From assembly GCA_964187785.1 (NCBI GenBank), contig OZ076421.1:47306001-47370000 (forward strand): a stretch of 64,000 nucleotides of DNA, in the 5' to 3' direction. This stretch comes from Amphiscolops sp. MND2022 (taxonomy: Eukaryota). The notes beneath the pieces are model-generated. The model was given only the letters and a program-made list of their open reading frames with translations. It was not told the origin of the DNA and did no database searches. The translations under genes and the position numbers were made by a program. Below, piece by piece: positions 284 through 63,078 of the stretch; position 1 is the first letter of the stretch, and each line of letters starts with the position of its first letter.

Positions 284-359
284 AGGCACTCTGCAAATTT
301 AACCCATTTGAGCTTTGTGAAATTTGCCTATCTGACCGCTGTGAAAAAAGCAAAAGACA

Positions 360-14130: not shown

Positions 14131-14174
14131 GTTCTCTAGTCGAGGTCCTCTGTAATTTTTAGTCGGCGTTTTCG

Positions 14175-26958: not shown

Positions 26959-26971
26959 TGGTGACAGGAGT
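26959..26971 (+). promoter_or_regulatory. Element A PBS, tRNA-Leu-like, inside the gag ORF
   Basis: TGGTGACAGGAGT abuts the LTR end; one mismatch to the tRNA-Leu(CAG) complement TGGTGTCAGGAGT; first 12 nt identical in B. Confidence 0.75.
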
Positions 26972-28138
26972 CCCTCAGACCAACCTCCTGGCGAACCCAC
27001 ACACAACACAACAATCAACCTCCAGATACCCTCAGCCACCCGCCAGCCAGTTCGACGACATTGTCAGTGAAATTCACCATCTACGAGACACAATGACGGA
27101 TACAGTGCAGCATCCCAAAATCCTGCACACACAAGTCCCGCTCTTCAGAGGAAACCGGAAGAAATATAACGAATTCGAACACTTGCTACTTAATCACCTC
27201 AGACCGCACCAGCACAAGCTGTCTGAAGAGCAGAAACTCACATATTTCCAGAGTTTACTGCGAGACGACGCCATCGAGTTCTGGCAATCACTGAAGATGA
27301 CGAGCCAGACCACACTCGCCCAAGTCCTCCGCTACTTCAAGAAAGAATACGCGAAAGAAGATCTGAAGGAAGTAGCGAAATACAAATTCGATCAAATGCG
27401 CTACGATCCGACAGCTGAGACGTTCAAGGACTTTTTGAACAAATTCAAAAAAGTGGCGAAACAAGCATTTGGAGATAAATCAAGCGACATAACGGAAACC
27501 TTTCTGATCGCTAAACTGCCCGTCCAAATGCAGAACGAATTGGCTATGGCTGGGAAACACGATGCGTCCATGGAAGAAATACGGACATTTGTTCAACGAC
27601 GATGCCAATACGCCCAGCTCATACCAAATACAACGCCACAACCATTCAACCAGATCAGCGCTCCACAACACAATGCAGCTGAACCTCAGTCATCAAACTC
27701 CCAACCACCCCAAAACCGGGAGACGAAACGAAAAGTCGACGGACAATGCCGCCACTGTGGAATCACAAGCCACAAGTGGGCCGAATGCCGTAAGCGCCTC
27801 AGGGAGGAAGCGCAAAACAAAAACGGCCACAACCAACAACAACCAGCTCAACCCACCAACACCCAGGACGTCAAACCTAAATACAACCCCAAGTTGGTGT
27901 GCCAAATATGTGGCAAAGTGGGACACTCCGCCCGAGACTGCTACTACAGAAATACGACGACGTCAGCCTATAGAAGCGTCCCGTATTCTTAGCAGTCGAC
28001 CGAAGAAAACAAGCAGTTCCGCCGCGACTTCAGACAAACTAACAACACGGTCTACAACGCGAACGAACTGTCCCACGCCACCAACGATGAAACTGATCAT
28101 GTCGAAGAAACGGAAAGGCACGATGACGTAGAAGACCC

Positions 28139-28145
28139 AAAAAAC
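28139..28145 (+). promoter_or_regulatory. Predicted -1 ribosomal frameshift site A AAA AAC (element A)
   Basis: X XXY YYZ heptamer in gag phase; the -1 frame is open from 28145 into the pol ORF at 28211. Confidence 0.75.
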
Positions 28146-33161: not shown

Positions 33162-34736
33162 TAAAAATTTCCTAAAATTTTATTTTCACATTCAAATGAA
33201 TGTAGTCTACATCACCACATGCATCAATCATACCTTTAAATTGTTTAGTCTACTTTACGCAATTCAGTGACGACTGATACTCACTGTCCGACATACTTGA
33301 GTTTACCGGCAGAGTAAATGGTTACTCTCTACCGAGACAGCTGAGCGCAAAAGTAAATACATGTAATGCAGTCATACACACCGCATCACGTTAACCGGAA
33401 ATCATTAAGTACATGTAAAATACATGCAAACGAGCTACTAATTTATGCATTTCACAGAAAACCTCAACCACACGCCTTCAAAGGAATTGCTTTGCAATTC
33501 TGTTCTTACCTACCTTATTGCAGCAGAAATAAACCAATTTAGCAAAGGTAATAACACACAACCGAACATGCAAAAAAGATAGCTGCCTTAGTTAAGTTAC
33601 GCCGCCAAAATCTAGTCCCGCACTTCCGCCCAGGAAATCATGATGTGGTTCGGCTGTGTGGGTGCGTCATCAAAAGCGCGTCTGTGTGGTTGTACAAACA
33701 TTCAGATGAAGCTTGCTCTTTAGCAAGTGGATTCGGTGTTAGTTTTGTATGGGTTTTTGCGACGGCAAATAACCTTCCCAATCCAATGAACAACATATAA
33801 AACTTTCCTAGGACAGTAAAATGCAGTCGTCACCTCTACATCGAAGTTAGATCATGACACTTTTGTTCTTACTGTTGATGCGTAGGCTTCGCCTCGCAGC
33901 AGGAACGACAGAACAACAAAAAACATGTAGTCATATTCACTACATTACCGAAGATTCGTAACAAGGGATGGTACACACCACCCCTTGTCAAAAAGATTAA
34001 TGGCCATGGGGAAACCCATCTACCATTAAGATTGACGTTAACGCTTGACACACGACACGAAGTGATGACGTCGCATGACACACATCAACGATGACGACGT
34101 CAAGAATAACGCTACATGAGAAATAAACATATGTAACACTTGACCTGAACTGACAGATTAAAATGACACTTAAGTTAGTAAACACCTGTCAAACAACCAC
34201 CTAGAGCACTATAAAAGCAGCTACTCAAAATGTTCAAATCATCTGTAGGAGTTGAGCGACTCCACCCACCCACCAAGCTTCCATCTCTGTCATATGTAAG
34301 CCATAATCATGAACAACGCTGACACGAGGATGGCACTTGGTGAGTGAGAGCTTTTCAATGGTAGTTACCTCGGCGACTACTCTACTAGAACTTGAATCAC
34401 TTGCAAAGCTGAGCCTATCACTCCAACATTTTGAAACCAGCTAACGAAGTTCACACGCAAAAAATTAGTATAACACAGTCAACATGTAACCTCACATGAA
34501 AAACATGCAACCTAGCCGACCAATCTGCTAAATGTAGACCAAATCATAGGCCGTCACACAAAATGTAAATCAAAATAAAACATAATCAAATCCCATCGAG
34601 CAAATAGCAAATCTACACTGACAAAAAAAAGAATCGGAATAGCACAAATAATTCACTGTAGTGAATTATGACCAAAAACAAACAGAAAAGATAACAGTTT
34701 CTAAATAAGTTTCACGGTAGACAAGTTCGCATACAT

Positions 34737-37700
34737 TTAATTGCCTGATCCAGACGAATCCAAGTGAATACGGCTCAGTCGTTTCCTCCCGCTCACAACT
34801 ACTTCACTAGCGGAATCGTCATCGGAGCCAGCAACATTAGCTAACTGCAAGTGTTTCGTTCCTCGGGGAATCCCTCCTGTTCTACGCCCAACTGACTGTC
34901 TCGTACGGACACCACAACGACTAGTTGAAGGCATACAACGTCTCGCACCCCTAGGATTCTTAACGGCGGATCTCTTCTTGTGGGGGGCTGTCTGAGCGGC
35001 AAACGGCGCACTGATGCCCAAAGTCACATCAATCTGCCTCCGTGCACTCTTTTTTGACTTAGCACTACTGACACCAATGGGACTGCTTCGCCGTCCAGCT
35101 CCTGGGGGACTCAATACCTCCACAAGATCCAATTGAGCCAAGACATTCGATCGATAATCATCAATAGGCACAGTTGAGGTAGTAGTTAGATCATTGGACA
35201 ATACAGCGTTTCCCAAAGAGAGAGCTTCACTCAGACTTGATTTGATTAACCGATCCCAAGGCCTGCACCGCGCCTCATCTGTTAATCGGGACACTTGCAT
35301 ATCACTCGTAGAACAAACACGTAGTAGCCCAGTGAGCGATTGACGGGTATGACCCGCAAACATCTTCGAAAACCAATTCCTGACAAGATGCAGACTAGAA
35401 CGCTGAGAATCAACAGACATAGCAGTACCAAACTCATCACTGAAGTTAGGGTTGTAAGTTCCGACAACTGCAAGTCCAAACAAAAGATTCAGTACTGACA
35501 ACAACTCTTGACATCGAGACCAAAAAGGATACGAGAACCACATCGTGATTACATCATCCACTGCAGGCATGCCTTCAATCAAGGCCCACTTGGTTTTGAA
35601 AAATTGGGTCACTTCCCGATATTGTCTCAGAGTATTCGCAGCTATGGAGTCGCTCATTAAATTATAACGAGAAAGAGTAGCACAGGTTCCGACCAAAGCA
35701 TCAATACAGCGATCATCAGACCCATGATGCACCAACAGTGGATCGAAAGGAGTCAGACTGAAGTGGTCAATAGCTCCACATTGCCACGTCCCCACAAGCT
35801 CCGTGCATATCACTCCCAACAATTTCTGCACTGACCGGTAGAAGAACGGGAGTTGTGTGCGAACGTCATACCGGAAATACTGACCAAAATGCAGTTGGTA
35901 CAGACTCTCGTCTATTGTAGAGAAATCGCGCTTCACTGGCTTCAGGAGTGAATCCACTTCATACTCAGCAGGTATGGTTGATTCAGGATACACTAAACGC
36001 ATCAGCCTCCGAACGAATTGTGACAGTTCACGCTCAACAACCATGTTACTATCACTGTTGCTCCTACACAATCGAGGGCACGTTTCGGCCACTGTAAACA
36101 CAACGCAACACACGTTAACCCATGCTCATAATTAGTTTGAACGTACCATTTAGAAACAAAAGGGGGGATAAAGAGTTAAGTCGACAAAAGCCACCAATAC
36201 CATGGCTGAACTCAATTACAAGAAAAAACCATACTAACACAAATCCAAAATGAAACGTAGAACGGCAAAACGAGGGCGCATCATGGCATCGTCAAATACC
36301 TGCTCCTCAAGCGGAGTCACCAGGCGCAACTCAGAAGTCACATGGGGGCGATGAGTTCCAAAATAGACTGCGAGGTCGTTCCAGTATTCGACAACTTCTG
36401 CACACAAAGCAGCCAACGAAACCACATCACTTCCTCTGTCTAGTATAAACTATAACAACAAAAGAAACATCCACGCAAGAAAAATAAGTAGACCCCGCAA
36501 AGTAACACCTCCTCTACAAAAAAAAACAAAAATTGGATCAAATGTCCTTTGATATACAACATACTATACATGTATAGTTCAAAATACTCACTTGTTTCAA
36601 ACGAGGCAAACGATCCAGAACACTCTCCTGCACCACGGAGGCTAGTTGAACACGCAAATAGTCCAGAACGCTGAGGGGATCCAGACCCACGAACTCAGCA
36701 AGAAAGTGCTTCCTAACAAGGTCAAACAACCACACTTGCGTCACTCGACCCACAACCAAAGGGTCAACGATCCCGACTGAAGCTGCTAGCGCGTATCCAA
36801 TGCGAGTATCTGACTCCGTGCTGTACGCCCTCATAGAAGAAGCATGTGACAGACTCAACAACACCGGAACAACAGTATCGAGCATTCGCTTCTCCCAACC
36901 GGTCCCGCCGACCACAACACCAAGAACGATTGTTTTCACAGCGTAGTCGCACACCACATGACACTCACGCAACCAATCTGCTTCGTGTCGTCTGATACTG
37001 ACACTTGCGCCTTTACCACGAGCTATCAGTTCATCTAACTGCTCCACGACGAACCGATACAATCCATAGTGAACCAGACTCTGTAAACAAAAGAAAAAAA
37101 AATCAACCTCTTTCTGCACAATTTCAACTATAGCCGCATAGTTGCACACCCAAGCATACAGCCACAACCCTTAGATGACCTCATCACACACAAACAGAAA
37201 TCGACATGAACTTATGTAGATACATACCTGACATCGTGTGTAGGTTAAGGTGCGGCACTCAACTCGCAGTTCCGTATTCATGGTGTCCCGCCACCACTCC
37301 ACCATTTGCATCACATCTCTGAATGTGGTAGTACTACAAAAACTGCTCACAAACTGGCTCAACCACAGGAATGAAACGCTCTCCTCGCCCAAAACAGGTT
37401 TTCCTCCAGAAACCGCTTCAGCCTCTTCAATGGCAACCCTCTCATCAACACTGAGACTCAGCTCTGACTCCAAAAACACAGGCGGTTCAGACATCCGTGC
37501 TCGCCGAATCCGTCTGTCTTCTTCTGCTGACACTGGCCGACATGCCTTATCAAGTAACGGCATCTGCATCATGATGCGAAACTTCTGCTCCACACGGGTG
37601 TGCTCTACACCCCGCCAATGCTCCCACAAGGAAGACAAACCACGTCCGGCAATGCTGAGGTCGACTTTGCACAACAGGCACCTGGCATACCCGTCGACTA

Positions 37701-39020
37701 CGCGCTTATGTCGTGGGAAACCAACAAAGGTCCCCACCACACCAGAAACGAAATAGGCCGGCTTCAACGTCTTCACCTTCTTATCGCGACCTACAATAAA
37801 AAACAGCAACTCCAATAAAAAACTTGTGTCGTAAATCGTAATCCTTAACCTAAGTGCTAATACTAAAACCCCTCCCATGATCTTCTGAGTTTTCTTACCA
37901 GGTTTAGCAGTAGAGGATGTGGAGATACCCCCCTCTTTCGGAGCCACTGAACGGACACCAGCGAAAGCAGTCGGAACATCGGACACTTGACTCAAACTGA
38001 CAGATCGTGAACTACTGGCATCCAAAGGACTCCCGGGTGCTTCCAACCGCACTGACGGCACACTTGTCACAGCTTGCTCGACCCCAGATCCACCAGGCAC
38101 AGAAGACGCAGCCAAGTGCTCCATTGCTGTTTTCAACTTTCCGATGAACTCCTCGACGGACAACGCACAGACCGATCCCAGCTCGCCCATTTTGGAATCG
38201 ATAATTGCTTTGACAGTCCCTGCCAATTCTTTCGTCATCTGCTGAAATGATGACTCCAACTCAGCAATGGTTACAGGCAAGCCTGTAACAGTCCCTACAA
38301 CACAACTTAATTTTGACCATATGCTGTGCACCATTCAACATGCAAGATACCGCCAATCCTAACAGTGAACTACGACTGGAAGTATATTCAACCTAATGGA
38401 TAACAATCGACTACGTACCTCGCTCATCACCGAGGACAGAACGGAGCCGATCCTCCACAGCAGTTAGTTCAGTAGCACCACTGACAGCAATACTCCGTTT
38501 CGAAGCTAACAGCCTCCGAAGCAAACTCACAATCTCTACGAGTGACAATTCTTCTAAAGTACAATAATGCCTAATTAGCTACCACATCAGTTACCCAGAG
38601 CATTTGATCCCGGGAAGTACATGCCACAATGCCAGTACCGTGCAAACCACATACTAGCATACCATAATTCAGGATACTCTGAAGGAAGATAACCTTCCCT
38701 GGTTACTACTTCGAAAAACAACAAAAAAAAGAACAACGAAATATTGGAAATTGAGGGTACTCACGGAATTCACTCGATAGAGCGATCTCTAATAACGTGT
38801 TGGCTACTTCTTTATTGGCAGCAGTCACTTTCCCAGCGAAACGGCAACAAATTCCTAGACGCTCTCCTGACAGAGTCTCCTCCACAGCAGCTGTTAACTC
38901 ACTGCCCACCGAAGAAAAACTTAACTGTGCCAACTCAGTGAACACCCCCTCCGCAGCTAACACAACAGAAGCCACATCAGTCGCAGCCTGAGACGTCTCC
39001 ACTTGAGGCGTTGAACTCAT
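34737..39020 (-). CDS. Spliced antisense accessory gene of element A; hAT-transposase-derived BED-finger protein, ~1130 aa
   Basis: Hand-built exons 39020-38765, 38553-38419, 38282-37899, 37790-37228, 37080-36592, 36449-36239, 36091-34737. All introns are GT-AG (donors GTGAGT, GTACGT, GTAAGA, GTATGT, GTGAGT, GTTAGT). Total 3393 nt with no internal stop. Finger CLLCKVDLSIAGRGLSSLWEHWRGVEH. The first exons are less certain than the last four. Confidence 0.85.
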
Positions 39021-39805
39021 AACGGCAATAAAAAGCAAGTCTGAAAAGAATAAAATCAAGGCTAACAATCTGGAAGCATACAGTCGTTTGCGATTTACTG
39101 AGATTCAAATTAACTTCTAAGGATTATGTGGCCTGATCACCCACATTATCTATGCAAAGTTACTACCCGAAAATTTCAAAGGGACAACCGAATTCCCGTC
39201 TACTTATATTTCCTCTAAAACGGTCAACACCTACCCGAAAAATTTGTCAAAATCACAACACGACTTCCTGGCTTATCCTATCTATAGCCTACTTGCTTAG
39301 TTGATACAGTCACTCAGTAAGCCGCGGCCGAACTGAACTGCTGAAGAATCGCACCAATGAATATAATGGAGAAAGATTTGTTTTTCGGTTTTGGCATCGG
39401 CGAAGATTTGTTTACAAAGCGCACGACATTTCCACTGCATCTTACTTCCGAACAGTTACCGAATAAGCCGAGTAATTATACTACGCTGCGACGTTATTAA
39501 TTTCCGGCAAATTCACTCTTGCTCTCACTCTCTTACTGCAAACAATGCGCACGATTGGATGACGTGGCTACATTCGCCACATCGACTTTATATTTACTCT
39601 TGACCGAAGTGGAATGTTCGTAATGCAGTGAACATTTTTCCAAGCATGATGCCGAATCATCCACCATGATGCAGTTGCTATGATAACGTCACTGCCATTT
39701 CCGACGAATAATCAGCACAAAGCTCAAAGCAGCCGATAGAAACGAACAATTACATCCAACTCTCCTCCACCCCCACCACTTGCTCTTTTCAAAAAAGACC
39801 CGGAC

Positions 39806-40991
39806 GGTCATGCCTGACGCATGATAATACTGAACAACGATGCTCTCAACTGAACAACATCAGTAAAAGGTGAACCAACAATACGCGCCGAAATGCAAAT
39901 GGGGAAAAGAATGTAGTTATATACACGGCATCACTAAAACCAAAAAACTAAAACTCTTCAATTACATCATTTTTACATTATTTACATGTCATCACACAAC
40001 AACCCAATCCCATTTTCATTATAATCATACACTCTTAACATGACTTTTCTCAACCCATTCCTAAAGTGCATCACGTAATGTAGTTGATATACTATCGTCA
40101 GAACTCTTTTTAAAGTAATTATTTTATTCATTTCTTCATTAGTTAAACCAGGCTATGCTGGTAACTCAACCACTCCATTTTATTGCTCAAGCATATAGCG
40201 TTAATGACATAAACATATTTCATTCCATATGTAAGTGATGTTGGTAATATAACCACATCACAGTGCTTTCTAAATTTACATGTAACGATGGTAATATACC
40301 ACCATTATAGTGCATTATTACTCATTTCAATTAGTGTAGTAAATTTAACAAACATTATGCGTAGCGATGGCAACGCAACATCATCGTAAAGCCTCAAATA
40401 GTACAACCACCAGTATGTCGCAATTAACACCTCATTAGTAGTGCAGTGCTATTGGTCAATACAGTCACGTGACGTTGTCACGTGACCGACATTGCGAAAT
40501 TGATAAGAGGTGCAAAAAGACAGCCATTAACCTTTGGTATAACTTGACGCTCAGTAGCTTACCACATCATTGCGAAAGATTAACCTTTCTCTTCAAAACT
40601 TAAATTCAACCTTAAAATCTCAATTCAAATTCTTTCAACAATTCCAGTTCTTTATACAAAATGGTAAATACACGATCTCAGGCAAGAAGTTCCATCCCAG
40701 TATTCATGGGTAAAACAAGTAGAAATGACCGTGTTAGTGATTCCGAAAGTGAATGCAGTATTCCCGACCTCCTCACAAGAGAACAAATTGATGAATTAGA
40801 AAATGAAAACCTCATTCATTCTGAACAACACTCCGATCAAATGACTATTGACCAACGTTTCTCGAGTATGAATAGAAAAATTAATGAGCTTACTGGACTA
40901 GTATTAGCTTTAACGGAAAAGTTATCCTCCAGTCATGGAGAAGGGAACGGTCAAAATACAGTTATCGATAAGACTAACGCACGTTCCGACA
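39806..40991 (+). repeat. Element A 3' LTR (first base T>G)
   Basis: Matches 25773-26958; carries the 111-aa gag N-terminal ORF 40661-40996. Confidence 0.97.
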
Positions 40992-44127: not shown

Positions 44128-46056
44128 TGTCGCAGGCCGCCTCTGACGGCACTAGAATCACGACTTCGGCAGAAGGGCAAGAGATAGCGACCGGCACCCT
44201 TCCAATCTATTAGAGAGGTAAAAACGCTCAAAACTCAAACTCTTATGTCATTTTGTCTAGTTTTGTAAGTCGGATTTATTACTGTTGCTAATTTTTCAAC
44301 TACTGTGCGCCTTTTACTAGTATTAGTCCGTTAATGCCAACAACTGAAAGATTCAAATAATGGGCTGATGTTTGTAAGGCTTGAAGTGCAGTACAATAAT
44401 ATAATTGAAGCAAACACGGCTAAATAGCGTAAAGGAAACGAGTTCAAGTGAACGCAACTCTGATTCCGGAGACGTCACTTGATCTCACTTCGTTAGCCAA
44501 TCACATTTATCCATCCTCGTGCTATTATTGCTGTATTCAATAAATGGCCGGTTAAGACCATCCGACAGAACTCTGCTTTTATTTATCGGTGCTTTAGTTA
44601 AACGGCCGATCCCGGCCACGAAGCAGTAATGAAAGAAGTACATCGTAATACCTTCGAGTGCTGATTGATAATGTAATAGTTGTGCTTTAACACTGGTTGA
44701 ACGTTCAATTTAGTAATTAGTGCTTTGTTTGATACTTGGCCGAATAAGGCCAATTGCTTGATTATTGTTTCGCATTGCCAGAACCAACCGAATAATAGCC
44801 GGTTAGGGCTCCTACCTAGATTAATAATCGGAAGTTTTGTTTGATGAGTTCATGTACTTTAAATGTAATGTGTGCTTGTAATCGCGTTATAAACAATCAT
44901 GTAGTTCTCTAAACTAATTGGTGCAATAGACGTTGACCTATGATGTTACTGCATGCGCCGGTCTGAAGGACCTTTCTGGCCACTTTCACCAGCTAGCCTG
45001 TGCAATCTGTTGTAATATTTTATAGAAATAAACATGTACAATAGAATGTAATAATGTTGACTTATAGTCAGTCCTGCCTGGTAACGAGGCACGTGCCGAC
45101 ACGAGATTGTTAGCATTCTTTGAATATAAGCGGACTCTGCATTTATATGATGTTCTTTGATGCCCTACGTGCCATTCAAATGTTTATTAGTGTGGTCAAA
45201 GTAGGAATTTGAATGGTCATGTGACTGTTCCGATCACATTTCTGCGGTACTTTGATGTTTGTGAAATTATGAAAATCAGGTGCTCTCGGAATGTGGTCAT
45301 CACATTTTTTAGTATTCGAACTATGTATGTCATGCCCGAGGCAGTATATATAGGTGCTACTTCCTTGGTCAGACACAACCTTACGTTTTGCTCATTACAA
45401 TTAGTTGATAATAATTTTGTTGCAAACCCACAACCAAATACCGTTTTCCGGTTCTAATAATTGAAATATTCGACCCGGATTTGTCTTAATGCCTACCACA
45501 AGAAAGCAAAAGAAAGCAAGGAAATCTAGAGGATTAGAAATACTCTCTGACATTGAAAACCTTGACATAATGTTAGGTGAAAATCACTTCAATGATACGA
45601 GGAGAGACGAAAGTCTCGACGGAACTTCCAATAGAAGGCAGGAAAGTATTATAAGTAATAACTTGGAAAATGAGGAAATGGATCTCCATTCTGACCACAG
45701 AAATCTTGGAGTCGGGACTAGTACCGGGTATGACCGAAATTCAGCAAGTGTAGACTCTCAAGCTGAGATCAATAAGTTGTCGAGTGAGTTGAACTCTAGG
45801 ATATCTAGAGAAATGGATGTAATAATGGACAGTGTTTGTTCTCAGATTCAAAGAGCCATAAGTGACGCCATAAGTAATCAGATTTTGCCCCAGATTCAAA
45901 ACGTCATTATGGCCGGTTCAGGACAGGAGACTAGAAGGGGATGGGAGAGACCTGGCGAGAGACCGGAAAATTATTCCGAAGTTCAGTACAACGCGAAAAC
46001 TAGAACTAATCTCAATAATGAACACGGTGATAAAACAAACCGTAATGTTCATGACA
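44128..46056 (+). repeat. Element B 5' LTR (1929 bp)
   Basis: TGTCGCAGG...TTCATGACA; repeated at 58492-60188. Confidence 0.96.
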
Positions 46057-46068
46057 TGGTGACAGGAG
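46057..46068 (+). promoter_or_regulatory. Element B PBS, tRNA-Leu-like, inside the gag ORF
   Basis: TGGTGACAGGAG abuts the LTR end; identical to element A. Confidence 0.75.
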
Positions 46069-47171
46069 ACAACGAATCTCCAAATCAAGTTCCTGAGTTT
46101 CTCACAGGACGAATCTCATCCAGAAATCATCTCGACAAGTCCTTTGAGGACATCAACCTCGACACAACGATCCCAGCACAAGAGAGAATCACTACGGCTG
46201 CTGACTCTGACCCCATCACTCGACTGGCAGACGTCTTGACTACAATGCAGAATAGACCGACAGCCCAACAACTTACCATACGCCCAGTCAACTCAAATAC
46301 CATGACATTCGATGGCAAAAGTGAAAAATTCGAGCTGTTCGAAGACCTATTTCACACTATGATCAAGATGCAGCCAGAAATGACTGAGCAAATGAAGATC
46401 AACCACTTCCACTCTTTATTGAGGAAGACTGCTCTTCAGACATTCAGAAATATCAGCTCAAGCAACCGACAAACTCTAGAGGACGTATTAGTCATTTTTA
46501 GACGAAAATACGTCAAGCCCGAGTCACAACCGACTGCCAAACAAATGGCACCGTCTGGTCTTCGATCCCAATACCATGAAACTGCCTGATTTTCTCGAAG
46601 AATTAAACCAGGGAGCCGAGAAGGCGTTTGGTGATCATGCGCAGAAAATGATTGACAGCTTGCTTTATGCAAAACTGCCACCAAAACTGAAGCGGTCCGT
46701 CAACATGGCCAGATTAGAAAATGGCTCCTACGATGAGATAGTTGCTCATTTGGAGAGAGAATTAGAACTTAACGCCCTCGAGGAGTCAGATGACCTACCA
46801 ATGGCCACAATGACCTCCTCGACTACAAAATCTAAAACTCCTCTGTCCACTGGGCAAATGTCAGACATTACTTGCAATTACTGCAAGGAAAAGGGCCACA
46901 TGGTCAAGGACTGCGAAAAACTGAAAAAGAAAAAAGAAAAAGATGCCCAACAAGGCAAGTCGACGCAGAAGAAAACATATCCGGAGTGTGGCACTTGTGG
47001 GAAAAAGAACCACCCGGAGGAGAGATGTTGGCAAGGTGCTGGTGCACATCTTAAACCCAAGCGCACTAGACCTGAGGACTCAACTGACAATAAGCCCAAT
47101 CCCAAGGCTCAGAAACCTCAGACCAAACCGACATCATCGGGCTCCCAATCCTCATATTCTAATGATGAGTC

Positions 47172-47178
47172 AAAAAAC
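47172..47178 (+). promoter_or_regulatory. Predicted -1 ribosomal frameshift site A AAA AAC (element B)
   Basis: Heptamer directly before the gag TAA; the -1 frame is open from 47178 into the pol ORF at 47277. Confidence 0.8.
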
Positions 47179-50100
47179 TAACTTCGCCACGACTCCAATA
47201 TAACGAATTAATATCTGTCCGACAGTACATCAGATCGGACCCTCCAACACAGACTTTCCACCAATTTAATCAGCAATTGATGGGCTATCCCTCTGTTGTC
47301 TGGCAGCAGCAGATAGAAAAAGCCACCATCATCACTTACAATAACACCCATTTGTTCCAGAAACCAATTCCTTTTTGGGACCCTGATTACACCACCACCT
47401 TCACTACCCGGTTCAGGCCTATTCCCCTGATCGATGACTACAATCCAACATACATCGATCCAGACTACAACAGAGATACCTACTGGGACACCGAGCTTTA
47501 TAACCAAGATTCACTACAATTTCAATATGTCCTGGACGATATTGAACACTATAATAGAACAGTCCACGAGAACCCTCCAATTACCCATAACAAGAAAACA
47601 AGAGCGCTAATTGAAAACTGGCAAATGAATGATGGCACAAACAATCCAGTGTTCCCAAACCCATTGGGGACCGAGACCCATGACAGCAATGCTGCAGCCA
47701 TACCACAATCATTGATAGACGAGAAACAGTTCCAAAATGTCTTAATCACTAGAGACGGCGAACCAGACTGTATACCCCTGTCAACCAACATCAACCTCAA
47801 ATGCAAAAAACGCATGTTGTATTTCCCAATGGACTTTGGGGAATTGACCATTGACGGACTCATTGACACTGGAGCGCTGTCCAGTGCAATTCCTGAAATG
47901 GACCTCCGGAAAATTCGACTTTTATCTCCACAATTCGTTATCCGGGAAGGTCCGCCTCCGAATTTCCAAATCATGGTCGCTAATGGGCAACTGGAAACTC
48001 CCAAGAGTACCATAGAGCTCAAATTTGAAGTTGGTGACATTGAATTCCACGAAATTTTCATAGTAATGGAACACTTGACTGGACCGATTATTGGACTGAT
48101 GTTCCTTCAGCGAAACCATACAGTTCTGGATATGCGACAAGGGATACTGAATTTCCCGTTCTTTTCGATGCAGCTCAAAACGGCTGACCATAAGTATTCA
48201 AATGTATTGGAACCAATTCTCAACCCTATTGAGATAACTATTCCACCAAACGATAAAGTCCTAATTAGGACCAATTCCCTACTCTACCCCGAGAATGCTG
48301 TCACTGGAATTTTGCAACCGAGCAACCTTCTACACGAAGAAGGCGACATCACATTTTGCCCAGCTCTGGTCACTCTGAATGACGGCAATATATTGATACC
48401 AGTGAACAATTTCACAGACCACCCTTATAAACTCAAAAAGGGACTTCATATTGCCAATTTCTCTGTCATGACACCAGAACAGATGAAGTATGTCAAACCG
48501 GTAGATCCGGCATCAACCTGGCACCTGTTGCAGAATGACCAGGAGCAAGCAGCCCATTACGTCAGCAGTCTCATCAAGACCAATAGAAATCCGCAAAACT
48601 CTGAAAATTATTGGTTCCCAACTCCAGAAAATCCTGGAAATCCTGAGGAACACACACCCATACAAAAACGAATCCTACGCGAGTTACAGGCCATACAGGA
48701 CCTGGAGACACTCGACCACACTACCGATGCAGAATCGCGTGCAAAATTCTTAGAAAACTTTGACTGGAAAGATTCCACCCTTACTCCTGAAGAGAAGGAG
48801 AAAATTGAGGAATTGTTAGTGGAATTCCATGACATTTTTGCACGACACCGATTTGATATAGGCATGAACGAGGAATTCAAGGTGAAACTGACGCCTAAAG
48901 ACGATTCCCCAGCCTATAGTCAAAGCCTTCCAGCTCCTATCAACTTGAAGGAGGACATCCTAGTTGAATTAGCCATGTTACACAAATATGGCATAATAAC
49001 CACACTACCATTCTCGAAATATGCAAGTCCAATATTCGCACAAACGAAGCCGAATGGGAAACTCCGACTCTTGGTTGACTTGAGAAAAATCAACAACCTC
49101 ATATCGGATGATTATATCAACAATAATCACCCCGTCAGTACACTAGTTGATGCCGCCCAACGCTTGGCAGGCGAAAAACTGTTCTGTAAATTAGACTGTT
49201 CGCAGGCACACCACTGCCTACCAATGGCCGACCAACGCTCAATCGAAATGTTGGCTTTCAATTTTGCCAGTCGCACATTCGCTTACAGACGTTTGGCACA
49301 AGGCCTTAGTCGGTCACTATCCGCATTCTCGAGTTTCATGAGAGAATACCTTGACAAAGTCATTAAAGCGGATCAGTGTGCCCAATATGTGGACGATATC
49401 GGCATCGCAGCTAATGATGTTGACCACCTCATGACGAACCTGAGAGCTACGTTCAAATGCATTCAGGAAGCAGGCCTTAAGTTAACAATGCACAAATGTC
49501 ACTTCGGTGCAAAAGAAATTGATTTTCTCGGACGGACTATTACCCCACAAGGCGTCAAACCCCAGAAACAGAATGTGCACAACTTTCTGGAAAGAACTAA
49601 ATTCCCGAAGTCGAAAAAGGCTTTACAGCGCTATTTGGGATTCCTAAACTACTACAGGAATTATGTCCCAAGACTCTCCGAACGCCTTGCTCCATTCTAC
49701 AAGATGCTCAAAAGTGACGAAAAGGTCCTAGTATCGAAAGAATTAGTCCAACAATTCGAAGAAATCAATGGAGCACTCGACAAATGTTGCGACTTGGCCC
49801 TACAACAACCCATTCCAAACAAGCAAATAGCACTAATGACTGATGCAAGTTTTGGTGCAGCCGGATACGCGGTCCTAATCGAAGACGACCAAAGCCAGAA
49901 ATTCACATCACTCAGAAAATCGTATGCACCGGTCGCATATGGATCAAAAACTTTCACCCCAGCACAGATCAAGATGTCAATTTATGCTAAAGAATTTCTT
50001 GCAATTTATTTTGCATTCAAAGAATTCGGACATATCTTTTGGGGTGCGCCGAAACCGGTCATCATCCTTACGGACAACAAAGCTGTAACACGATTTTTCC

Positions 50101-52383
50101 AAACGAAAATAATACCCCCAGCACTGTGGAACGCATGTGACTATGTTATTCAGTTCAATTTTGCCATAGCGCACATCCCGGGGGCACAAAATACAGCTGC
50201 CGACTATTTGTCCCGATTGGAAGCAGATCCGAAGGACAAATTGGTGATGAAAATTCGCGAAGATGTACAAACACTACCAATTGAAATCAATGTCCAATCT
50301 GCAGGAGTGTCGCAAGAGGAACGCATCTTCTACACCAATGACGACGATGAGACAGAAGAACAGTTGTGGGCAAGAAAAGAAGCAATCAGGAAAAATCCAA
50401 TAACTGATGAGTCCACTGTTACTATACAAACTCTGTCAACAAATCTAGTCAAGCAACACCCCGATATACAAGCCCGATTGAGGAAGACGAACCAGATCAT
50501 TATCGAGCAATCCAAAGATGCAGTACTACAACAATTGAAAGCAAAACTGCTTCATGAGGATTATTCAGAAAATCTACTGCACCAGGATGCCCGATACAGA
50601 CATTACGCAAACAACCTGGAACGAATTGTACTTAAGGACGAAATCCTGACAAGGCAATACTTTGATGAAATAGGGAACGTTAAATACCATCAAATTCTGC
50701 TCCCGCAACATTTACTCCAGGAATTACTTCAGTCTCTTCATGGGACAGCACACAAACACCCTGGGATTTCAAAAATGCTGCAGGAAATTCGACAGAGGTA
50801 TTATTACCCTAGCATGGCTAAGTACGTCAAAAAGTGGGTAGAAGGGTGCGAACAATGTGCCAGAGACAAGAGAGTCCCTAACGCAACGATCACACCTGAG
50901 CTACTCAACTTGCCAGAATGGGACCTTGGACCTGAAGACGCCATGCAAATCGACCTATTGCCGAATCTTCCCCCAAGTGGAGGATACGAGAATGTCCTAA
51001 CAGCAATCGACGTATTTTCCAGATATTTGTTCGCATATCCTCTCACGGACTCATCAGCGATCAATGTAGCAAAAGCGATCATTGACATCATGACCAAACA
51101 TGCATATCTGCCAACAACTCTTATTACTGACAAAGGTACAGCATTTACTTCTACAATTATTGCGGAGGTTACGCAGATTTTGGGTATCACACTCAAATGT
51201 GCAACGACAAAACACCCACAAACAATTGGGAAATTAGAGCGGACCCATGCCTCATTAAAGACGAATCTCAAAATGGCATGCGGGGAATACCGCCGACAAT
51301 GGCATAAATACTTGCCATTAGCAGTACTTAATCATAATACTAGTTATCATACCAGCATCGGTTGTGAACCAACAAGGGTATTCCATGGCAGAATTTCCTA
51401 TAATATTCTGGATCACAAGCTTGGAAATAATCCAAACGAAAAAATCAACCCTACAACCGAATTTGCGGAAGAAATCCAAAATAGGACAAAAATCCTAATT
51501 GACAAAACGAAACAGAACATTATGCAGTCGTATATTAAGTACAAAAAATATTACGACCGCAAAGCAAAAGCCGCTCCACTAAAGGAGAACGAATACTGTT
51601 TTGTCTTACAGCCGAAAGCGGATAACCAAGGATCAAAAATCCCATTCCGCGATTACCGTTGGGTTGGACCATTTGTAGTCCAAAAAGTTTTGCCAAATGA
51701 AAACTATATAGTACGACGGATCAATACGAACAAAACCCAAATTTTGCATCGCATTCGTCTTAAGAAGTTTGTCCCAAATCAACCGCTTGAGGATAATTTC
51801 CGAGAACAACAGTTGCAGCCAGATGAAGAAATTGTCATTCCGCAAGATGATTTATACGTCATAACGTGGGAAACAGACTTTGGCGAGCAACTAGTTACAC
51901 GAGGCAACGAGACTATTCCGACCAGCATGCCGAATGGCGAACAGCCGAATGCGCCCGAAGCGAATACAAATGACGTAGCCAAGAACGAAGCGGATTACAT
52001 AATCACGAGTGACGAAACAAGTTACGCTGACAACGTGGCGCGAAGCCGGAATGAAAGATTAAATCATGACGTCACAAAAAGGAATGAAGCTAGTGAAGCG
52101 GCTAGCAATGACAAATCTGATTGGCCGAATCCGGCCGTTTCCCCAAAAAATCAAGAAAAAACTTTGCCGAATATGGATGAAAGACCAAAAAATGATGAAA
52201 CTCCCTCAGAAAGAAGTTTGACGAATGAAAACGACGCACAAAATTCTCCAAAAGGGGGATGATATTATCGTGCCCGAAATATCTGAAAGCGATGCTAGAA
52301 ATGAGAGTCTGAGCCCTAGAGGAGGGAAATATAACCTCAGACCTAACCCTAACCCAAACTACTCAGAAGACTTTAGATACTAA
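47178..52383 (+). CDS. pol: Element B pol (PR-RT-RNase H-IN), open for ~1690 codons; C-terminal tail frameshifted near 52255
   Basis: LIDTGA, YVDD, MTDAS, HKHPG..CEQC, IDVFS/TDKG/KLER. An alternative frame after 52255 gives ...GKYNLRPNPNPNYSEDFRY* ending at 52383. Confidence 0.95.
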
Positions 52384-52482
52384 GAACTGAATTTTCCCGG
52401 GAATGGGAATTCTTTTCTTTTATCTCTGTGTTTTTTTCAAGCCCCTCTGAGAACTTCCTTTTTGAATAAATACTGGGGCATT

Positions 52483-55400
52483 TCAAAGGATCCCACACAA
52501 AAGGAATAAATAAGGGATCAAGACAACAAAATTGAAAGAAACAAAACAGAAATCAACAAAGTTTACAGTTTGTAGGTACATAAATACATATGTACAATTA
52601 ATCCTTAGAATCCCAGCAGGAGAGTCTTCTACGACAGAAGAGGCCCTTGACCTCGAATTGCTCTTCTCCATCCGTCTTCGCTTGCGATCACTAGGGGGTA
52701 CTACAGCAGGTGCCTCTCCAAAGGTAGAGGTTTCGTTCCCATCAGGGTCTCCAACTTCTTCCCCCAGTCCGGAAAGTGCAGAACGATATGTCGTCAATAA
52801 GGTCTTGTAGATCTTCCCCTTGCCAAACTCATCAATGAACGTCCAGGGGTCATAGGAGGAGGATAAGGCTGACCGACCGAATGAGGCGGAAAGAAGGGAG
52901 AATTCACTCAGATTGGACTCATTACTACAGAAAGCAACAGAGTCAGGAACTCCAGACAGGTAACTCTGCACGGGTAAAACCACGTCAGTAAGCCTACTCT
53001 GATAGTTTGAAGTGCTGAGAGACCCCACAGTTACTACGGGATAACGAGGACTGTTAGAAGTAACACACAGGCAGCTCAATTTGAATAGGTACAACAAGTG
53101 ACTGTGCTCCTGCATAAAGTCAAGGTTGATGAGGAAGTCAATCAGATCCGGAGAACCCCGAGTGACATCAAAGGAAGGTAGAACGGAGGCACGAAGTTGA
53201 TCTAGCAACTCCACGTACTCGTCTCGACAGGCAGACTCGTTTGCAGAGCTAACCCAAGATCGAAGCTGGAAGGTACGGTACAAGAGATCAAAATGGCGGA
53301 GAGCTACTTCGGTAGGCCTATGCACCATAATATGAGGGTCAAAGGCAGCAAGCCCCCTGACGAGGTTAGAGCAAAGGCCGGCTTGTCGAAGGACTGTTCC
53401 AATCAGATACTGCAGGTAGGATTGAGTGTCCCGGACGAAATCATTTTTGATGGTAGTGGCGGTCTTCTGAACAGCAGCCCTGTCAATCTTCTTGCCTGAA
53501 TGCACCCCTTCCGCTTTCTGCTTGCAAGACTTGGCAACTTTATTAGTCATCTTTAGCCGGGTCAGGAACTCGTCCGCTGGCATGAAGGTTCCCTCGCTGG
53601 TCTGGAAGTTCAAGAGAAGGAACCACGAATTTTCTAGAGGAATAGTGTCGGGGGAATAACAGCGGAAGCAGAGCCGGTAAATGTAGCGGGCTATTTCTCC
53701 ACAAAGGTAGAAGGACGAGTCTCGTCTACATTGAAGATTGTTTACGAAACTGGAGTTGTCTAAAAACAAAGGAACAATCCTCACTAGTCTCAGCAAGACA
53801 AATCAGTCCACCTTGTTATACTAACAATCGCTGACGAGATGGTAGAAGAGTTCCAGCTTGACAAGGAAAAACTCGTCACAGATGAGCGGCCACTCAAAAC
53901 TCTGGACCTAGAACATAACAGGAAACAATAGCAAGCCTGTGTCATTCCTACCTAAAGAATTTGGAACAAGGTCCAGGTAGGGCCACTTACCCTCGTTCTG
54001 ACTCCTTGGCCTTGCTGTTTGGGGGCATGCAGTGTGAGGTAGGCAACTACGAATTTCCACTCTTCCATGAGCTCCTGACACAGAATTGGCAAAGTGGAGA
54101 GCTCCAAGTCACTTTTAGAGATAGCCTAAGGAAAAATTCAGAATCATTGTAAGGCCCAGGCTAACGTCCCAAACTAACCAGAAGTGCGCCTAACATTGAA
54201 ACCCTAATAATTGCTAACCTTGGCTAACACAGGACTGCGTTGCACCCAATCTTCTTGAGAAGATCCACCCAAAGAGATGACCAGACCTCGTAACACTGAG
54301 AAGAAGTCCAGATGCCCGAAAACACTGTAACTGCTTCTATGCATCAATCTAGGTAAATTCAACTGGCTGAATCAGAAGCAACTTTGGACAGCACGGGAAG
54401 AGGTCGGGAGTTCATCTAGTGTTCGGATCAATTCAGAAGGGCATCCGGAACAGGCCACAATATCCGCCTTCGTTGAGACCACCGAGAGCAGGCGGGCCAA
54501 GGAACCTAACTCGCCAGTGAGATCCGTGCTGGGCAACCCACTGCGACTGATGACGACCCTGCACAAGTGTTGACCCTTCCAGTACCTGAGCGACATGAAG
54601 CGGCTAGCTCCTTCATCCTCAAATTCCAGAGCGAAGAACTGCGAGGAAGAAATGTGGTCTGCGATGTCACGCATACTGCAATTGAAGAGATGCTGGAATA
54701 TGGCCTGGAAAGGAGAATGAGTTGAGAACCTAAATAAATTCGGATGGGGAAGTTTGTAAGTGAAGCGAAAAGATAGTACTTACGGTCACTCTCTCTTCCC
54801 CCCAGTCAAAGTCACAAAGGGCTGCCTGGTGATCGGTGAACGAGCTGATCTTCGCCCACATGTTGCGGAGGATTGCAATGTCACCGTGATGCTGGATAAA
54901 ATCGGCAACCATGCACAGCTGAGTTCGTGCGCGAGACTCCGGAGTGACCAGAGGAGTCGTCCGGCCTCGGATGAAATCCTCATAGAAGGGGAAGCGCTCC
55001 CCGATATCCACCAATTCAGCGTGTATGAACTTGGGAAGCTCCTTAGCCAATTCCAATTTAGTCAAGATTTTCCCGTTTTTGCCCCGCACACGATGTTGGG
55101 TTTTCAGGGTGACGGGATCGGTGCTCTTCAAGTGCTCGTACCGCCACCGCTGATCACGTCTAAGGTGCCTCTCGGTACGATGGTGTCTGAGGATCTCCAT
55201 TGTCCCTTTGGTGCGTATGGAAAAATTCTTTTTGCAGATATGGCACCAAACCATATAAGGGTTGTGTAGTGGATCTGCGGGTCCGGAAATGAATGAACGC
55301 GTCCACCCGATCTTGGCGAAAAATTCTTCCCTCATTGGGACTCCGCGTTGTGGTACCCTCTTAGGCTTGCTAGCCTTCCTACTCCGCTGCTTACCTTTGG

Positions 55401-56733
55401 TCCCCAGAGTCTGGTCTCTCACCTCAGACAACGTCGCGTCTTGACTGCTGAAGTCAGTTTCCTGGCTGTCGGCTTGGATTAGCCCACCGGGTGCTGGCAA
55501 AGATGTAGCCTTGACGGCTGACCGATTGTTGGAAGCCTCGAATGTGCCAGAGATCAAAGCCATTTCCCCGGCACTATCACTCTCTCCGAACGTGGAGGAG
55601 TCGCCTAACCCACCAAGATCGGTGGCACTCTGATCCTCTGAATCAACGATGGGCAGTTGGCCGGATTCGGCATCACTGGAATCACTGCTAGCGTACCGGT
55701 AAGGAGTTTGTGCGCGCGCCCCCAGTTGGAAATGCCCGGTTCTTGATGGTGCGACCGTTGGGCTACAACGAACAGCGTCTAGGATCATGCGCTCAATGGT
55801 TGTGAAGGACATGCGGAGAGTCTCATCGCTTAGAACGCGCAGCAAATGATACACCTGTGGCTCGGAGAAAGTCACGGTTGTCTGTCCGGGTGGCAACCTG
55901 AAGGCATTAGTCTCGTCAAAATATGTCTTCAGAATGGCTCTTGCTCTCCCAGAAAGTTCTGGAAGCTGGTCTCTGGTCCCCCTAGAAGTTGAAGGTTCGG
56001 GCTCTAATTGTTCCTGAGCCGTGATTGTCAGGTCGGGCGGATCTATTGTCTCTGCTCCGGATTCGGACACATTCGGAATTCCTCCATATAACGAAGGGCA
56101 GGTTGCATTGCTTGACTCTTCTGCAGTTTTCTCGGCTTCACTGAGGTCTGTCAAAAACCGGACCTTATGCTCCTGTGTTGGGAGGGCAGGGACTTCATAC
56201 ACGGAAGATTCGCAATCATCATCAGTTGTTGATACGGCAGAAATTGGGACAATAGCCTTAGTCAGCGTCGTGGTGAGGAGTTCAGGCAATTGGGATCCTA
56301 TAGGATCAGCGACTCTCAGTCCCGACTCTAAGGCAGTTAGACTAGCTTGAGAAGTCCCAGCTGTTTCAAGGGGGATTGGAGTGCTTGCACGGATAGGGAA
56401 CATAGGCTGCGTCTCCAGTTGGCTGGAACGAATCTCCGTACGAGATAATTCAGTATTCTTGGCACTCACACCTGGCTCTTCCTGTATTTGGAGTATCCCA
56501 GTCTCTATGCTTGAGGCTTTGGCTTCCGCATACGCATTCACATCCTCGTCGCTATCTGTATTCTGGGGAGAAATCTGAGGATGGGTGACATTCCTGGAAG
56601 CATTTGTAGCGTCTTCAGTGGAAGCTGACAGAGACAGTTCAGAAGGATTTGGAGAAATTTCGGTCTCAGGAGTTTGATTATCTAAATAGAAAGAAATGAA
56701 AGTCGGCGGTATGCTTCCTTGAAAAGAATCCAT
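52483..56733 (-). pseudogene. Spliced antisense accessory gene of element B (homolog of the A gene), ~1300 aa, one internal TGA
   Basis: Exons 56733-54784, 54704-54219, 54125-53991, 53907-53826, 53759-52483. Introns of 79, 93, 83 and 66 bp, all GT-AG and frame-preserving. Premature TGA at 54374-54372. Finger WCHICKKNFSIRTKGTMEILRHHRTERH. True C-terminus uncertain. Confidence 0.85.
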
Positions 56734-57780
56734 TTTACCGCGTTAGAAATCTTCCGGAAGTGTTCGAAAACTTGAATGAAACGTGTTATCACACGTTTAC
56801 TCGTGGAAATAGGAAGCAGTATTTGAACAAAGTATAGCCTTGATCAAGCTAATCTAGTTCACTAATTAGGAAGAAATCAAACCAACCTGGATCTGAAGAC
56901 ATGTTCTTTTGGACTGTTGACTTGTGGGAAGTCCTAGGCGAATAGCTAGAGATTGCAGTTTTTAGCCGGTCTCGGCAATGAGGGTGTCCCGGGATACTGC
57001 AGAGAGGAGAATCAACAGCTGACTGAGGACAAAAGGGAGACGAGTATCAGCTGAGTGAGCCCAAGTAAAGGTAGTGGAACAAATAAATAATAAACGGAAT
57101 TGAACTGGAATTTTATTGTGAATAAATTGGAGAATTGGAGGTCGTGGCTGAAGAAGATTACCGGACTAATATTATACAATTATCTACATATTTAAGTTGT
57201 GCATGGAGTCTGCCAGCGAAATGTACAGGAAGCATACACTATTTACAGCTTAGTTAGTTAGTGGCCGATTATGGCCGTTTGCCCTATTCCATTTTACCGT
57301 TTCGTCCAATTGCCTTAGTTACCTCTAGTTAGAATTTTCGCCATTTTGGGGTTATTTAGCTTTTTTATTTCCGCCATTTTATTATTCAATTTTCAATTTA
57401 TCGAAACTCGATTCTCATTGGCTGAAGCCATTTTGAGAAAACTTTGCGACGCATGCTGTTAATTGTTTTCAAGCGACCTGTTAATTACCCACTTGAAACG
57501 GGCGAAGTTAATATTTACAACTCGAGCGTCATTTACACCTCTCATAGTGACGGTATTAATGAAGGGTAAACATTGAATTATCAAAGGATGCCGACTAATT
57601 GTGGAATTCCATTCAGGAATGTTTATGTCGGATTACGACGATTTACCGAAGATTCAACCGCCAAAACGGGCTACCGGGAAGAGGCCCGACTCGACCAAAT
57701 TCTTGAATTGGTAACTTCATTCCACTTTGAAATCCTGATCAAGTCAGTTTACCTTTCCACCTAACAAAATTGCTAAGAAA

Positions 57781-58580
57781 TTGATAATGCAAAGATACAA
57801 CTTGACCAAAAAACTCTTCGACTTTGAAGAAGACTCAGAAAGCTCAGCTAACTCAGTGATCTACATATCCAGTGATAGCGAAGATGAAGTCTCGAGTTCC
57901 TGGGATTCGGACTGGTCTACAGATACAGAGGCAATAATAGACAGAATTGAGCGGGAAGTCAAGGCAACTCCAATCCCGATTGCCGGACGAGTGATGACGA
58001 CGGAAGGCTCAAACGACGGAATGGTAGCGGGGCCCAGCAATGCTCAGCCTGTTCCGCCCTCTACCCCCAAACTGGGATTTGAATACTTCAACAAAGAAAT
58101 GTGCCTCGCGCCGTCCAAAAGGCAGAAGAAATCAAGAATAGAACTTTGCACTACGGTACTACCTGTCTTGGAGTCACCTCTGTCCCCTCCTGAGCACGAG
58201 AGACCTAATATTGACCTAATATTGACACCCCTTTGGTGCAGATGACCCCAGGGATCTTCTATGCTTCTTACCATGTGCAGAAAATTAAGCCATACCAAAA
58301 TGTCAGTGAGAGCCTACACACGGGCTGTATGGTGTGTGGCAAGTCAAGGGACCAGATAAAAGAAGAGAAAATTAACCGGTATATGGAGAGATCAACGCCC
58401 GAAAGTGAACCCGCCTACATTACCGCGTTACGACGAGAAGCATACTCTAATGGATTAAATGCAGGTTGCTTACTCTTCCTAACACCCGCAGTGTCGCAGG
58501 CTGCCGCCTGTGACGGCACTAGAATCACGACTTTGGCAGAAGGGCAAGAGATAGCGACCGGCACCCTTCCAATCTATTAG
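57781..58580 (+). pseudogene. ORF-X: ~260-aa sense ORF running into the 3' LTR, split by an 11-bp tandem duplication
   Basis: GACCTAATATT is duplicated at 58202-58223; removing one copy fuses 57781-58245 and 58233-58580 (ERPNIDTPLVQMTPG). Contains CMVCGK and VSQAAACDG. Confidence 0.8.
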
Positions 58581-60188
58581 AGAGGTAAAAACGCTCAAAA
58601 CTCAAACTCCTATGTCATTTTGTCTAGTTTTGTAAGTCGGATTTATTACTGTTGCTAGTTTTTTCAACTACTGTACGCCTTTTACTAGTATTAGTCCGTT
58701 AATGCCAACAACTGAAAGATTCAAATGATGAGCTGATGTTTGTAAGGCTTGAAGTGCAGTACAATAATATAATTGAAGCAAACACGGCTAAATAGCGTAA
58801 AGGAAACGAGTTCAAGTGAACGCAACTCTGATTCCGAAGACGTCACTTGAGCTCACTTCGTTAGCCAATCACATTTATCCATCCTCGTGCCGGTTAAGGC
58901 CATCCGACAGAACTCTGCTTTTATTTATCGGTGCTTTAGTTAAACGGCCGATCCCGGCCACGAAGCAGTAATGAAAGAAGTACATCGTAATACCTTCGAG
59001 TGCTGATTGATAATGTAATATTGTGCTTTAACACTGGTTGAACGTTCAATTTAGTAATTAGTGCTCTGTTTGATACTTGGCCGAATAAGGCCAATTGCTT
59101 GATTATTGTTTCGCATTGCCAGAACCAACCGGATAATAGCCGGTTAGGGCTCCTACCTAGATTAATAATCGGATGTTTTGTTTGATGAGTTCATGTACTT
59201 TAAATGTAATGTGTGCTTGTAATCGCGTTATAAACAATCATGTAGTTCTCTAAACTAATTGGTGCAATAGACGTTGACCTATGATGTTACTGCATGCGCC
59301 GGTCTGAAGGACCTTTCTGGCCACTTTCACCAGCTAGCCTGTGCAATCTGTAGTAATATTTTATAGAAATAAACATGTACAATAGAATGTAATAATGTTG
59401 ACTTATAGTCAGTCCTGCCTGGTAACGAGGCACGTGCCGACACGAGATTGTTAGCATTCTTTGAATATAAGCGGACTCTGCATTTATATGATGTTCTTTG
59501 ATGCCCTACGTGCCATTCAAATGTTTATTAGTGTGGTCAAAGTAGGAATTTGAATGGTCATGTGACTGTTCCGATCACATTTCTGCGGTACTTTGATGTT
59601 TGTGAAGTTATGAAAATCAGGTGCTCTCGGAATGTGGTCATCACATTTTTTAGTATTCGAACTATGTATGTCATGCCCGAGGCAGTATATATAGGTGCTA
59701 CTTCCTTGGTCAGACACACTTCAATGATACAAGGAGAGACGAAAGTCTCGATGGAACTTCCATTAGAAGGCAGGAAAGTATTATAAGTAATAACTTGGAA
59801 AATGAGGAAATGGATCTCCATTCTGACCACAGAAATCTTGGAGTCGGGACTAGTACCGGGTATGACCGAAATTCAGCAAGTGTAGACTCTCAAGCTGAGA
59901 TCAATAAGTTGTCGAGTGAGTTGAACTCTAGGATATCTAGAGAAATGGATGTAATGATGGACAGTGTTAGTTCTCAGATTCAAAGAGCCATAAGTGACGC
60001 CATAAGTAATAAGATTTTGCCCCAGATTCAAAACGTCATTATGGCCGGTTCAGGACAGGAGACTAGAAGGGGATGGGAGAGACCTGGCGAGAGACCGGAA
60101 AGTTATTCCGAAGTTCAGTACAACGCGAAAACTAGAACTACTCTCAATAATGAACACGGTGATAAAACAAACCGTAATGTTCATGACA
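58492..60188 (+). repeat. Element B 3' LTR (1697 bp; 26-bp and 209-bp deletions)
   Basis: Matches the 5' LTR except for a 26-bp deletion near 44522 and loss of 45378-45586. Confidence 0.96.
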
Positions 60189-62986: not shown

Positions 62987-63078
62987 TGTCGCAGGCTGCC
63001 TCATGTGATGGCATATTCTACCAAATTATGCCAGACGACAACCAGAGCAACCCGGGACCAGGAATCTTGCCCATATAG
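62987..63078 (+). mobile_element. Start of a fourth, related LTR (extent unknown)
   Basis: TGTCGCAGGCTGCCTCATGTGATGG; frame VSQAASCDGIFYQIMPDDNQSNPGPGILPI*. Confidence 0.6.

Follow-up and report, generated by a model that had tools for sequence, protein, structure and literature searches.

We analysed a 64,000-nucleotide stretch of the Amphiscolops sp. MND2022 assembly (contig OZ076421.1, positions 47,306,001 to 47,370,000; here called the window, and numbered from its first letter) which contains a Ty3/Gypsy long terminal repeat (LTR) retrotransposon, element B, with a large spliced gene on the strand opposite to its gag and pol. Element B spans 44128-60188 on the plus strand, with the target site duplication (TSD) CGCCT at both ends and TG...CA termini on its LTRs. 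The 5' LTR (44128-46056, plus strand; TGT...ACA, 1929 nt) and the 3' LTR (58492-60188, plus strand; 1697 nt, with an internal deletion of ~209 nt) are 98.6% identical across 1693 aligned nt. The element has a primer-binding-site-like motif, TGGTGACAGGAG, at 46057-46068 (plus strand), a gag of two frames (45465-47181, plus strand; DUF1759 and a CCHC knuckle) and a pol (47169-52262, plus strand) in the Ty3/Gypsy order protease, reverse transcriptase (RT), RNase H and integrase (IN). The motif and the pol order are shared by element A, a second Ty3/Gypsy element in the window (25773-40991; TSD GATGA; LTRs 99.3% identical), whose RT and IN are ~65% and 45% identical to those of element B.

The antisense gene lies between pol and the 3' LTR and consists of five exons, all on the minus strand. 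Exon 1 (56733-54784; 1950 nt, 650 codons) encodes an acidic N-terminus, a finger and a helical region; it is followed by exon 2 (54704-54219), exon 3 (54125-53991), exon 4 (53907-53826) and exon 5 (52598-53759), the last of which encodes a helical domain and a basic tail and ends at the family stop codon, TAA at 52600-52598. Introns 1 (54705-54783, 79 nt, donor GTAAGT), 2 (54126-54218, 93 nt, GTTAGC) and 3 (53908-53990, 83 nt, GTAAGT) are in phase 0 and intron 4 (53760-53825, 66 nt, GTTAGT) is in phase 1, and all four end in AG acceptors. This is the gene model of the first-pass annotation, which proved right in its exons, its donors and the position of a nonsense codon. The GT donors of introns 1 to 4 are found in 27/28, 27/29, 28/29 and 29/29 of the aligned sister copies, respectively, and indel events among 11 mid-diverged sister copies are concentrated in the introns (19-55 per kb, vs ~1 per kb in exons).

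The copy in the window is a pseudogene of this ~1,270-codon gene, as it carries two lesions. The first is a TGA stop in exon 2 (54374-54372), which had been noted as a single nonsense codon and is private to this copy: the codon is a sense codon in 27 of 29 sisters and a stop in none, with two not aligning. The second is a late frameshift a few codons before the family stop, which makes the last frame run on to 52483 and lengthens it to 439 codons, vs 401 in most close sisters. The gene end placed at 52483 by the earlier reading is an artefact of this frameshift.

On its 5' side, an AT-rich spacer (56734-57738) separates the antisense gene from two small sense open reading frames (ORFs), at 57739-58245 (plus strand; conserved in families B, F and G) and 58242-58580 (plus strand; with a CxxC, extending into the 3' LTR). 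Both are divergent from the antisense gene and open in most copies of families B, F and G; a Pfam search with the first returned no match. The spacer is likely a divergent promoter.

Homologues and introns across the clade

Element A carries an antisense gene whose homologous core (34737-37790, minus strand) was recognised by profile search and shared introns. The A and B proteins share only ~15-26% identity, and direct comparison of the pair is weak: the last exons match at E 0.039 and the finger region at 1e-5, with an HHalign probability of 0.3%, so that neither pairwise BLASTP nor shallow profiles suffice and intermediate copies are required. We found these through the primer-site motif with its preceding CA, which has 7527 matches in the 1.07-Gb assembly vs 1 for the reversed control, placing the gene in one of the genome's large repeat groups. 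To keep the sampling neutral with respect to the gene, 60 of the first 100 matches listed, all on contig C1, were taken with 10 kb downstream of each. A profile of 34 B-side last-exon frames, from which A-family members were excluded, detects element A at E 8e-5 and a second A-family copy at 1e-10, where the best reversed decoy reaches 0.4; later E-values are circular and were left out of the argument. Exon 3 of A and of B fall in the same profile columns, and the blocks of exon 2 and the last exon first paired by eye also align in the family alignments. The homology proposed between the two proteins thus stands, as does the dissimilarity of their LTRs: a self-blastn of the window returned no match between an A and a B LTR.

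The gene was suggested not to be a one-off insertion, and it is indeed found throughout the clade: 50 of the 60 sampled elements have it, including 48 of the 51 that bear pol (pol match of at least 40%), and in 48/48 it is antisense and downstream of pol. Of the three pol-bearing elements without it, two (L105 and L121) seem to have internal deletions and the third, L112, is an outgroup; a further outgroup, L126, falls below the 40% pol cut-off and likewise lacks it. Searching a sequence library with the last-exon profile returned 1,692 clusters (50% identity, E up to 0.001).

The two outgroups (L112:3546-4862 and L126:4006-5231, both plus strand) have the same primer site as element B and no hAT-like gene. 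After integrase they share, by eye, a different multi-piece set of antisense ORFs without Pfam matches, and further on a sense envelope-like frame, which in L126 has a furin-like RTKR and a hydrophobic stretch.

Intron positions mapped onto profile columns in 59 copies of eight groups serve as markers for the gene. Intron 1, common to seven families, lies at columns 168-172 in phase 0 in 47/59 copies (no call possible in 9, unresolved in 1, absent from 2). Intron 2, which maps to column 333 and is also in phase 0, is present in 34/59 (17 not testable, 6 absent, 2 other), including the A, F and G families, and is absent from the D and X groups; in group D it is the only intron missing. The last intron, at column 402 in phase 1, was found in 18/59 (35 not testable, 2 absent, 4 other), and the test for it failed for most B copies because of the extra intron in B: element A has no intron 3, and intron 4 of B splits the same codon as the last intron of A, as read from alignment A4. 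Two copies, L158 (2899-5274, plus strand) and L113 (4820-6997, minus strand), lack all three introns exactly, with zero offset, and have the core in a single frame. In a tree rooted on L112, families A and C branch before these two copies, which makes loss of the introns the simpler reading; such exact loss suggests that a spliced RNA once existed. Taken together, we have little doubt that this is an ancient, clade-wide, protein-coding spliced gene.

Selection, phylogeny and cassette exchange

Purifying selection maintains the antisense gene in at least seven families. The ratio of nonsynonymous to synonymous divergence (dN/dS) of the last exon is 0.17, 0.12, 0.07 and 0.05 across rising bins of synonymous divergence (dS) in 63 pairs, the other 213 of 276 pairs being saturated and excluded, and 108 of 125 best last-exon matches contain no stop. 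The values for RT and IN are 0.02-0.05. In substitutions per site, the accessory tree has a length of 26.1, vs 2.8 for RT and 4.6 for IN, which indicates that over long times the protein changes much faster than pol.

CpG transitions are not in excess among 18 close B-family copies (0.020 vs 0.027), and the pattern in copies L001-L019 suggests no decay by CpG methylation. Without CpG hypermutability, CpG decay is unsupported as the source of the stop in the window copy.

Trees were built from the 41 copies with RT, IN and last exon. All three contain the same seven groups as clades (support 0.75-1.0; the groups were named once the trees had been inspected), which supports one ancient origin of the gene. 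The accessory tree shares 17/37 splits with the RT tree and 20/38 with the IN tree, where 1,000 label shuffles gave at most 3, and the Mantel rho of accessory distances against RT and IN is 0.91 and 0.92. Supported accessory splits in conflict with the RT (5/30) and IN (4/30) trees all lie within families A and G; the one that was tested, an accessory grouping in family A, is rejected by both the IN and the RT tree (approximately unbiased test, p 4e-10 for IN and 0.001 for RT). RT and accessory trees thus agree between families and part ways inside A and G.

In 21 B-family copies picked to span the accessory diversity, the three parts of the antisense gene covary with each other (rho 0.89-0.93), with next to no covariation with RT or IN (Spearman -0.14 to 0.06), the small ORF (rho 0.07-0.14) or the LTR start (0.17-0.22); the small sense ORFs recombine independently of it. 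Relative to the window copy, L050 has an RT dS of 0.10 and a saturated accessory dS, and L043 has an IN dS of 0.58 and an accessory dS of 0.027. Copies of one family therefore exchange the gene as an intact cassette relative to pol and LTR, likely by template switching. The idea of an ancient, vertically inherited gene consequently holds between families, as a single ancient origin, and gives way within them to cassette exchange independent of RT, IN and LTR.

Protein architecture, origin and function

The antisense protein (~1,270 aa) has an acidic N-terminus, a C2H2 finger, a helical core and a basic tail. Its first 450 aa are acidic and rich in Ser, Thr and Pro. In the finger, C-x2-C...H-x5-H, both His are invariant and both Cys are at least 90% conserved across 37 aligned copies. 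Exon 2 encodes a strand-helix region, likely RNase-H-like strands without the conserved acidic residues to judge by its alignment, and a basic cluster is present in the tail of 35/46 last-exon frames. A model of the helical domain has a predicted local distance difference test (pLDDT) score of 84 and a predicted template modelling (pTM) score of 0.68; folding from a single sequence gave a pLDDT of 36.

Four concordant lines, each weak and none decisive, indicate that this protein probably derives from a hAT transposase. In the Atlas comparison, 24 of 30 matches were to PF05699-bearing clusters (score 0.93, 148 shared features), with DUF4371/FAM200/DUF659 clusters at 0.79-0.82. The model of the helical domain, which does not include exon 2, matched the Hermes transposase (8EDG) at rank 6 of 48,161 (Z 4.9, root mean square deviation 6.3), with 173 residues aligned to 367-609, a longer alignment than any other of the 50 matches listed; we take this region of Hermes to be the insertion domain and last catalytic helix. 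HHalign gave collinear sub-threshold segments for the finger, the RNase-H strands and the C-terminal half, in hAT order. Profile z-scores against two hAT profiles were 2.1-3.0, vs 0.3-0.7 for an integrase control. The zf-BED domain was matched below cut-off in 2 of 14 proteins (E 0.11 and 0.17). Catalytic residues have likely been lost, as far as alignment can tell: the positions aligned to the Asp-Asp-Glu (DDE) triad of hAT are non-acidic, and the strand region of exon 2 has no acidic column at 60%, where a hAT control has 8 columns at 90%.

Several results weigh against hAT ancestry. No Pfam family scored above cut-off in sets of 14 and 75 proteins; the Atlas recognition values of 2086 and 2047 are below the bar of 2300; a Z of 4.9 is within the chance range for helical models; the HHalign probabilities of the hAT segments are 0.07-1.3%; the real hAT profile score was reached by 1-6 of 100 block shuffles; and the accessory profile had no match below E 0.3 among the hAT frames of the assembly. 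Foldseek returned no match at E 0.001 and a second look nothing at Z 5, and PDB sequence searches of the protein gave nothing significant. A search for longer homologues found none, which is weak evidence, and one for PF14291 was uninformative, with no match in the assembly or in the controls. We do not file the protein as a member of the hAT family. That the gene is real and clade-wide and encodes a finger-plus-helical protein of some other origin would fit the sub-threshold standing of every sequence and structure match, but independent methods converge on the hAT superfamily with the correct domain order, and the hAT idea was recorded before the Atlas and fold results; we consider another origin unlikely.

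The explanation that we find best, and hold tentatively, is that the antisense gene came from capture of a hAT gene and encodes a catalytically dead, nuclear, DNA-binding regulator of the element's transcription or chromatin. An ancestral Ty3/Gypsy element would have captured an intron-containing gene from a hAT DNA transposon in antisense orientation. For a gene with introns to endure in a retroelement, the packaged RNA must leave it unspliced. Antisense placement would satisfy this, since the introns lie on the strand opposite to the packaged RNA and would not be spliced from it, and so could persist through retrotransposition. The gene may use its own promoter in the spacer, and the exact loss of introns in two lineages may have come about by recombination with complementary DNA (cDNA) of the spliced message. 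In domesticated hATs, DNA binding is reportedly kept and catalysis rarely so (PMC10368747). The finger and the helices after it may bind DNA, the acidic N-terminus may contact transcription or chromatin factors, and the basic tail may be a nuclear signal, a combination which is best read as a nuclear regulator acting in trans; action in trans would allow single copies such as that in the window to decay. From composition and domains, then, a role in transcription or chromatin regulation is possible, somewhat short of an even chance. Against such a role, LTR type hardly follows the accessory allele (rho 0.17-0.22). This speaks against binding of each allele specifically to its own element's LTR, though two short LTR islands (58799-58815 and 58840-58855) are common to 13-17 of 21 otherwise diverged LTR regions. 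The lack of CpG hypermutability (0.020 vs 0.027) lends no support to an action against CpG methylation.

With the same gene and origin, the protein could instead be an integration cofactor that tethers the integrase-cDNA complex to selected DNA or chromatin, or aids nuclear entry. Its transposase-derived DNA-binding architecture and basic tail would suit this, the integrase proteins of the B family are 86-97% identical, so that one partner could serve many accessory alleles, and a captured reader domain that steers insertion provides a precedent (PMC6673714). It is nevertheless encoded by a separate antisense gene and not fused to integrase, and the long acidic N-terminus better suits a transcription factor, which makes a role in integration doubtful. 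To a similar degree we doubt a counter-defence role for it, directed at small-RNA or chromatin silencing, with deep allelic cassettes kept by host-element conflict: the long accessory tree (26.1, vs 2.8 for RT and 4.6 for IN) and the saturated-dS alleles on near-identical RT (dS 0.10) are what conflict could produce, but dN/dS is low at all depths, the B-family sample was picked to span accessory diversity and no CpG decay signal is seen. Recent captures that took place separately in A and B, or a DNA transposon passively nested in the element, would account for the low identity of A and B and the weak pairwise tests, yet are scarcely credible given the purifying selection and the agreement between families in position, orientation and intron codons, the shared introns and congruent deep trees already contradicting them.

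Neighbouring features and comparison with known systems

In both window elements the gag frame begins within the LTR (45489-46056 in B, from the ATG at 45489 inside the 5' LTR; 26583-26958 in A). As gag also reads through the primer-binding site, its 5' end is duplicated in each 3' LTR. At 58470-58491, abutting the 3' LTR, B-family copies have a conserved pyrimidine-rich, acceptor-like stretch ending in CCCGCAG; a polypurine tract was sought before the 3' LTR, and no purine run is present there in B-family copies. Elsewhere, the window contains an LTR element (1-8060; LTRs at 1-262 and 7803-8060), which from its motifs we take to be BEL/Pao-like, a tandem duplication of ~1,785 nt at 99.7% identity (13464-17034) that includes a 32-33-nt repeat array and is either recent or an assembly artefact, decayed protease/RT-like and gag-start-like fragments (17261-18632 and 22455-23171) beside a 200-base N gap (22487-22686), and a short stretch similar to the beginning of the B LTR (TGTCGCAGGCTGCC, 62987-63015), perhaps a solo LTR remnant.

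In its likely domain order the antisense protein resembles hAT transposases (Hermes; ZMYM1/THAP12-like and FAM200/ZBED5/GTF2IRD2-like proteins) and domesticated ZBED factors, which have a finger, RNase-H-like strands and a helical C-terminal half. It differs from them in lacking a conserved DDE, in its long acidic N-terminus and in belonging to a retrotransposon instead of the host. HBZ of human T-cell leukaemia virus type 1 (HTLV-1) is a small basic leucine zipper (bZIP) protein. Its gene is regulatory and, like that of element B, spliced and antisense within an LTR element (PMC1459196), but HBZ starts in the 3' LTR, whereas the B gene has its start ~1.8 kb within the element and no sequence relationship to HBZ. 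Captured accessory genes are also found in LTR elements of animals as the bdelloid ORF3 types (PMC5408684) and CopiaMBD (PMC6673714), described there as ORF3-type genes or a captured domain, with none reported to be antisense, intron-keeping and transposase-derived, and as the env genes of errantiviruses (PMC13524379).

The closest parallels in arrangement are the antisense ORFs of plant Tat/Retand-type Gypsy elements (Grande gene23, RIRE2, Retand TRP28) and of fungal Boty, which are reported to be likewise antisense, between pol and the 3' LTR, family-wide and conserved (PMC7264820, PMC11963269); the Grande protein is described there as nuclear and expressed from its own promoter. Most of these ORFs are reported to contain Transposase_28 (PF04195), which had no match in Pfam searches of the antisense proteins, that of element B included. 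The word intron is absent from PMC11963269, whereas the gene here has ancient shared introns, encodes ~1,270 aa and is of likely hAT ancestry. In the literature searched, which took in few subscription papers and no repeat databases, no LTR element with a spliced antisense gene of hAT descent was reported.

On balance, we favour the view that a retrotransposon lineage domesticated a dead hAT protein as a spliced antisense gene, carried on thousands of elements and exchanged among them as allelic cassettes, and that in a sister lineage another antisense gene occupies this slot. If so, this is a case of one transposon class domesticating the enzyme of another, and the antisense slot would let LTR elements in general carry large genes with introns. 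Without a Pfam domain, such a gene would be missed by standard annotation or labelled as a host gene. For the antisense accessory ORFs of plants and the fungus, origin and function are stated to be unknown (PMC7264820); the gene described here, whose origin can be traced, whose old introns serve as markers and which occurs in many natural alleles, makes both questions testable.

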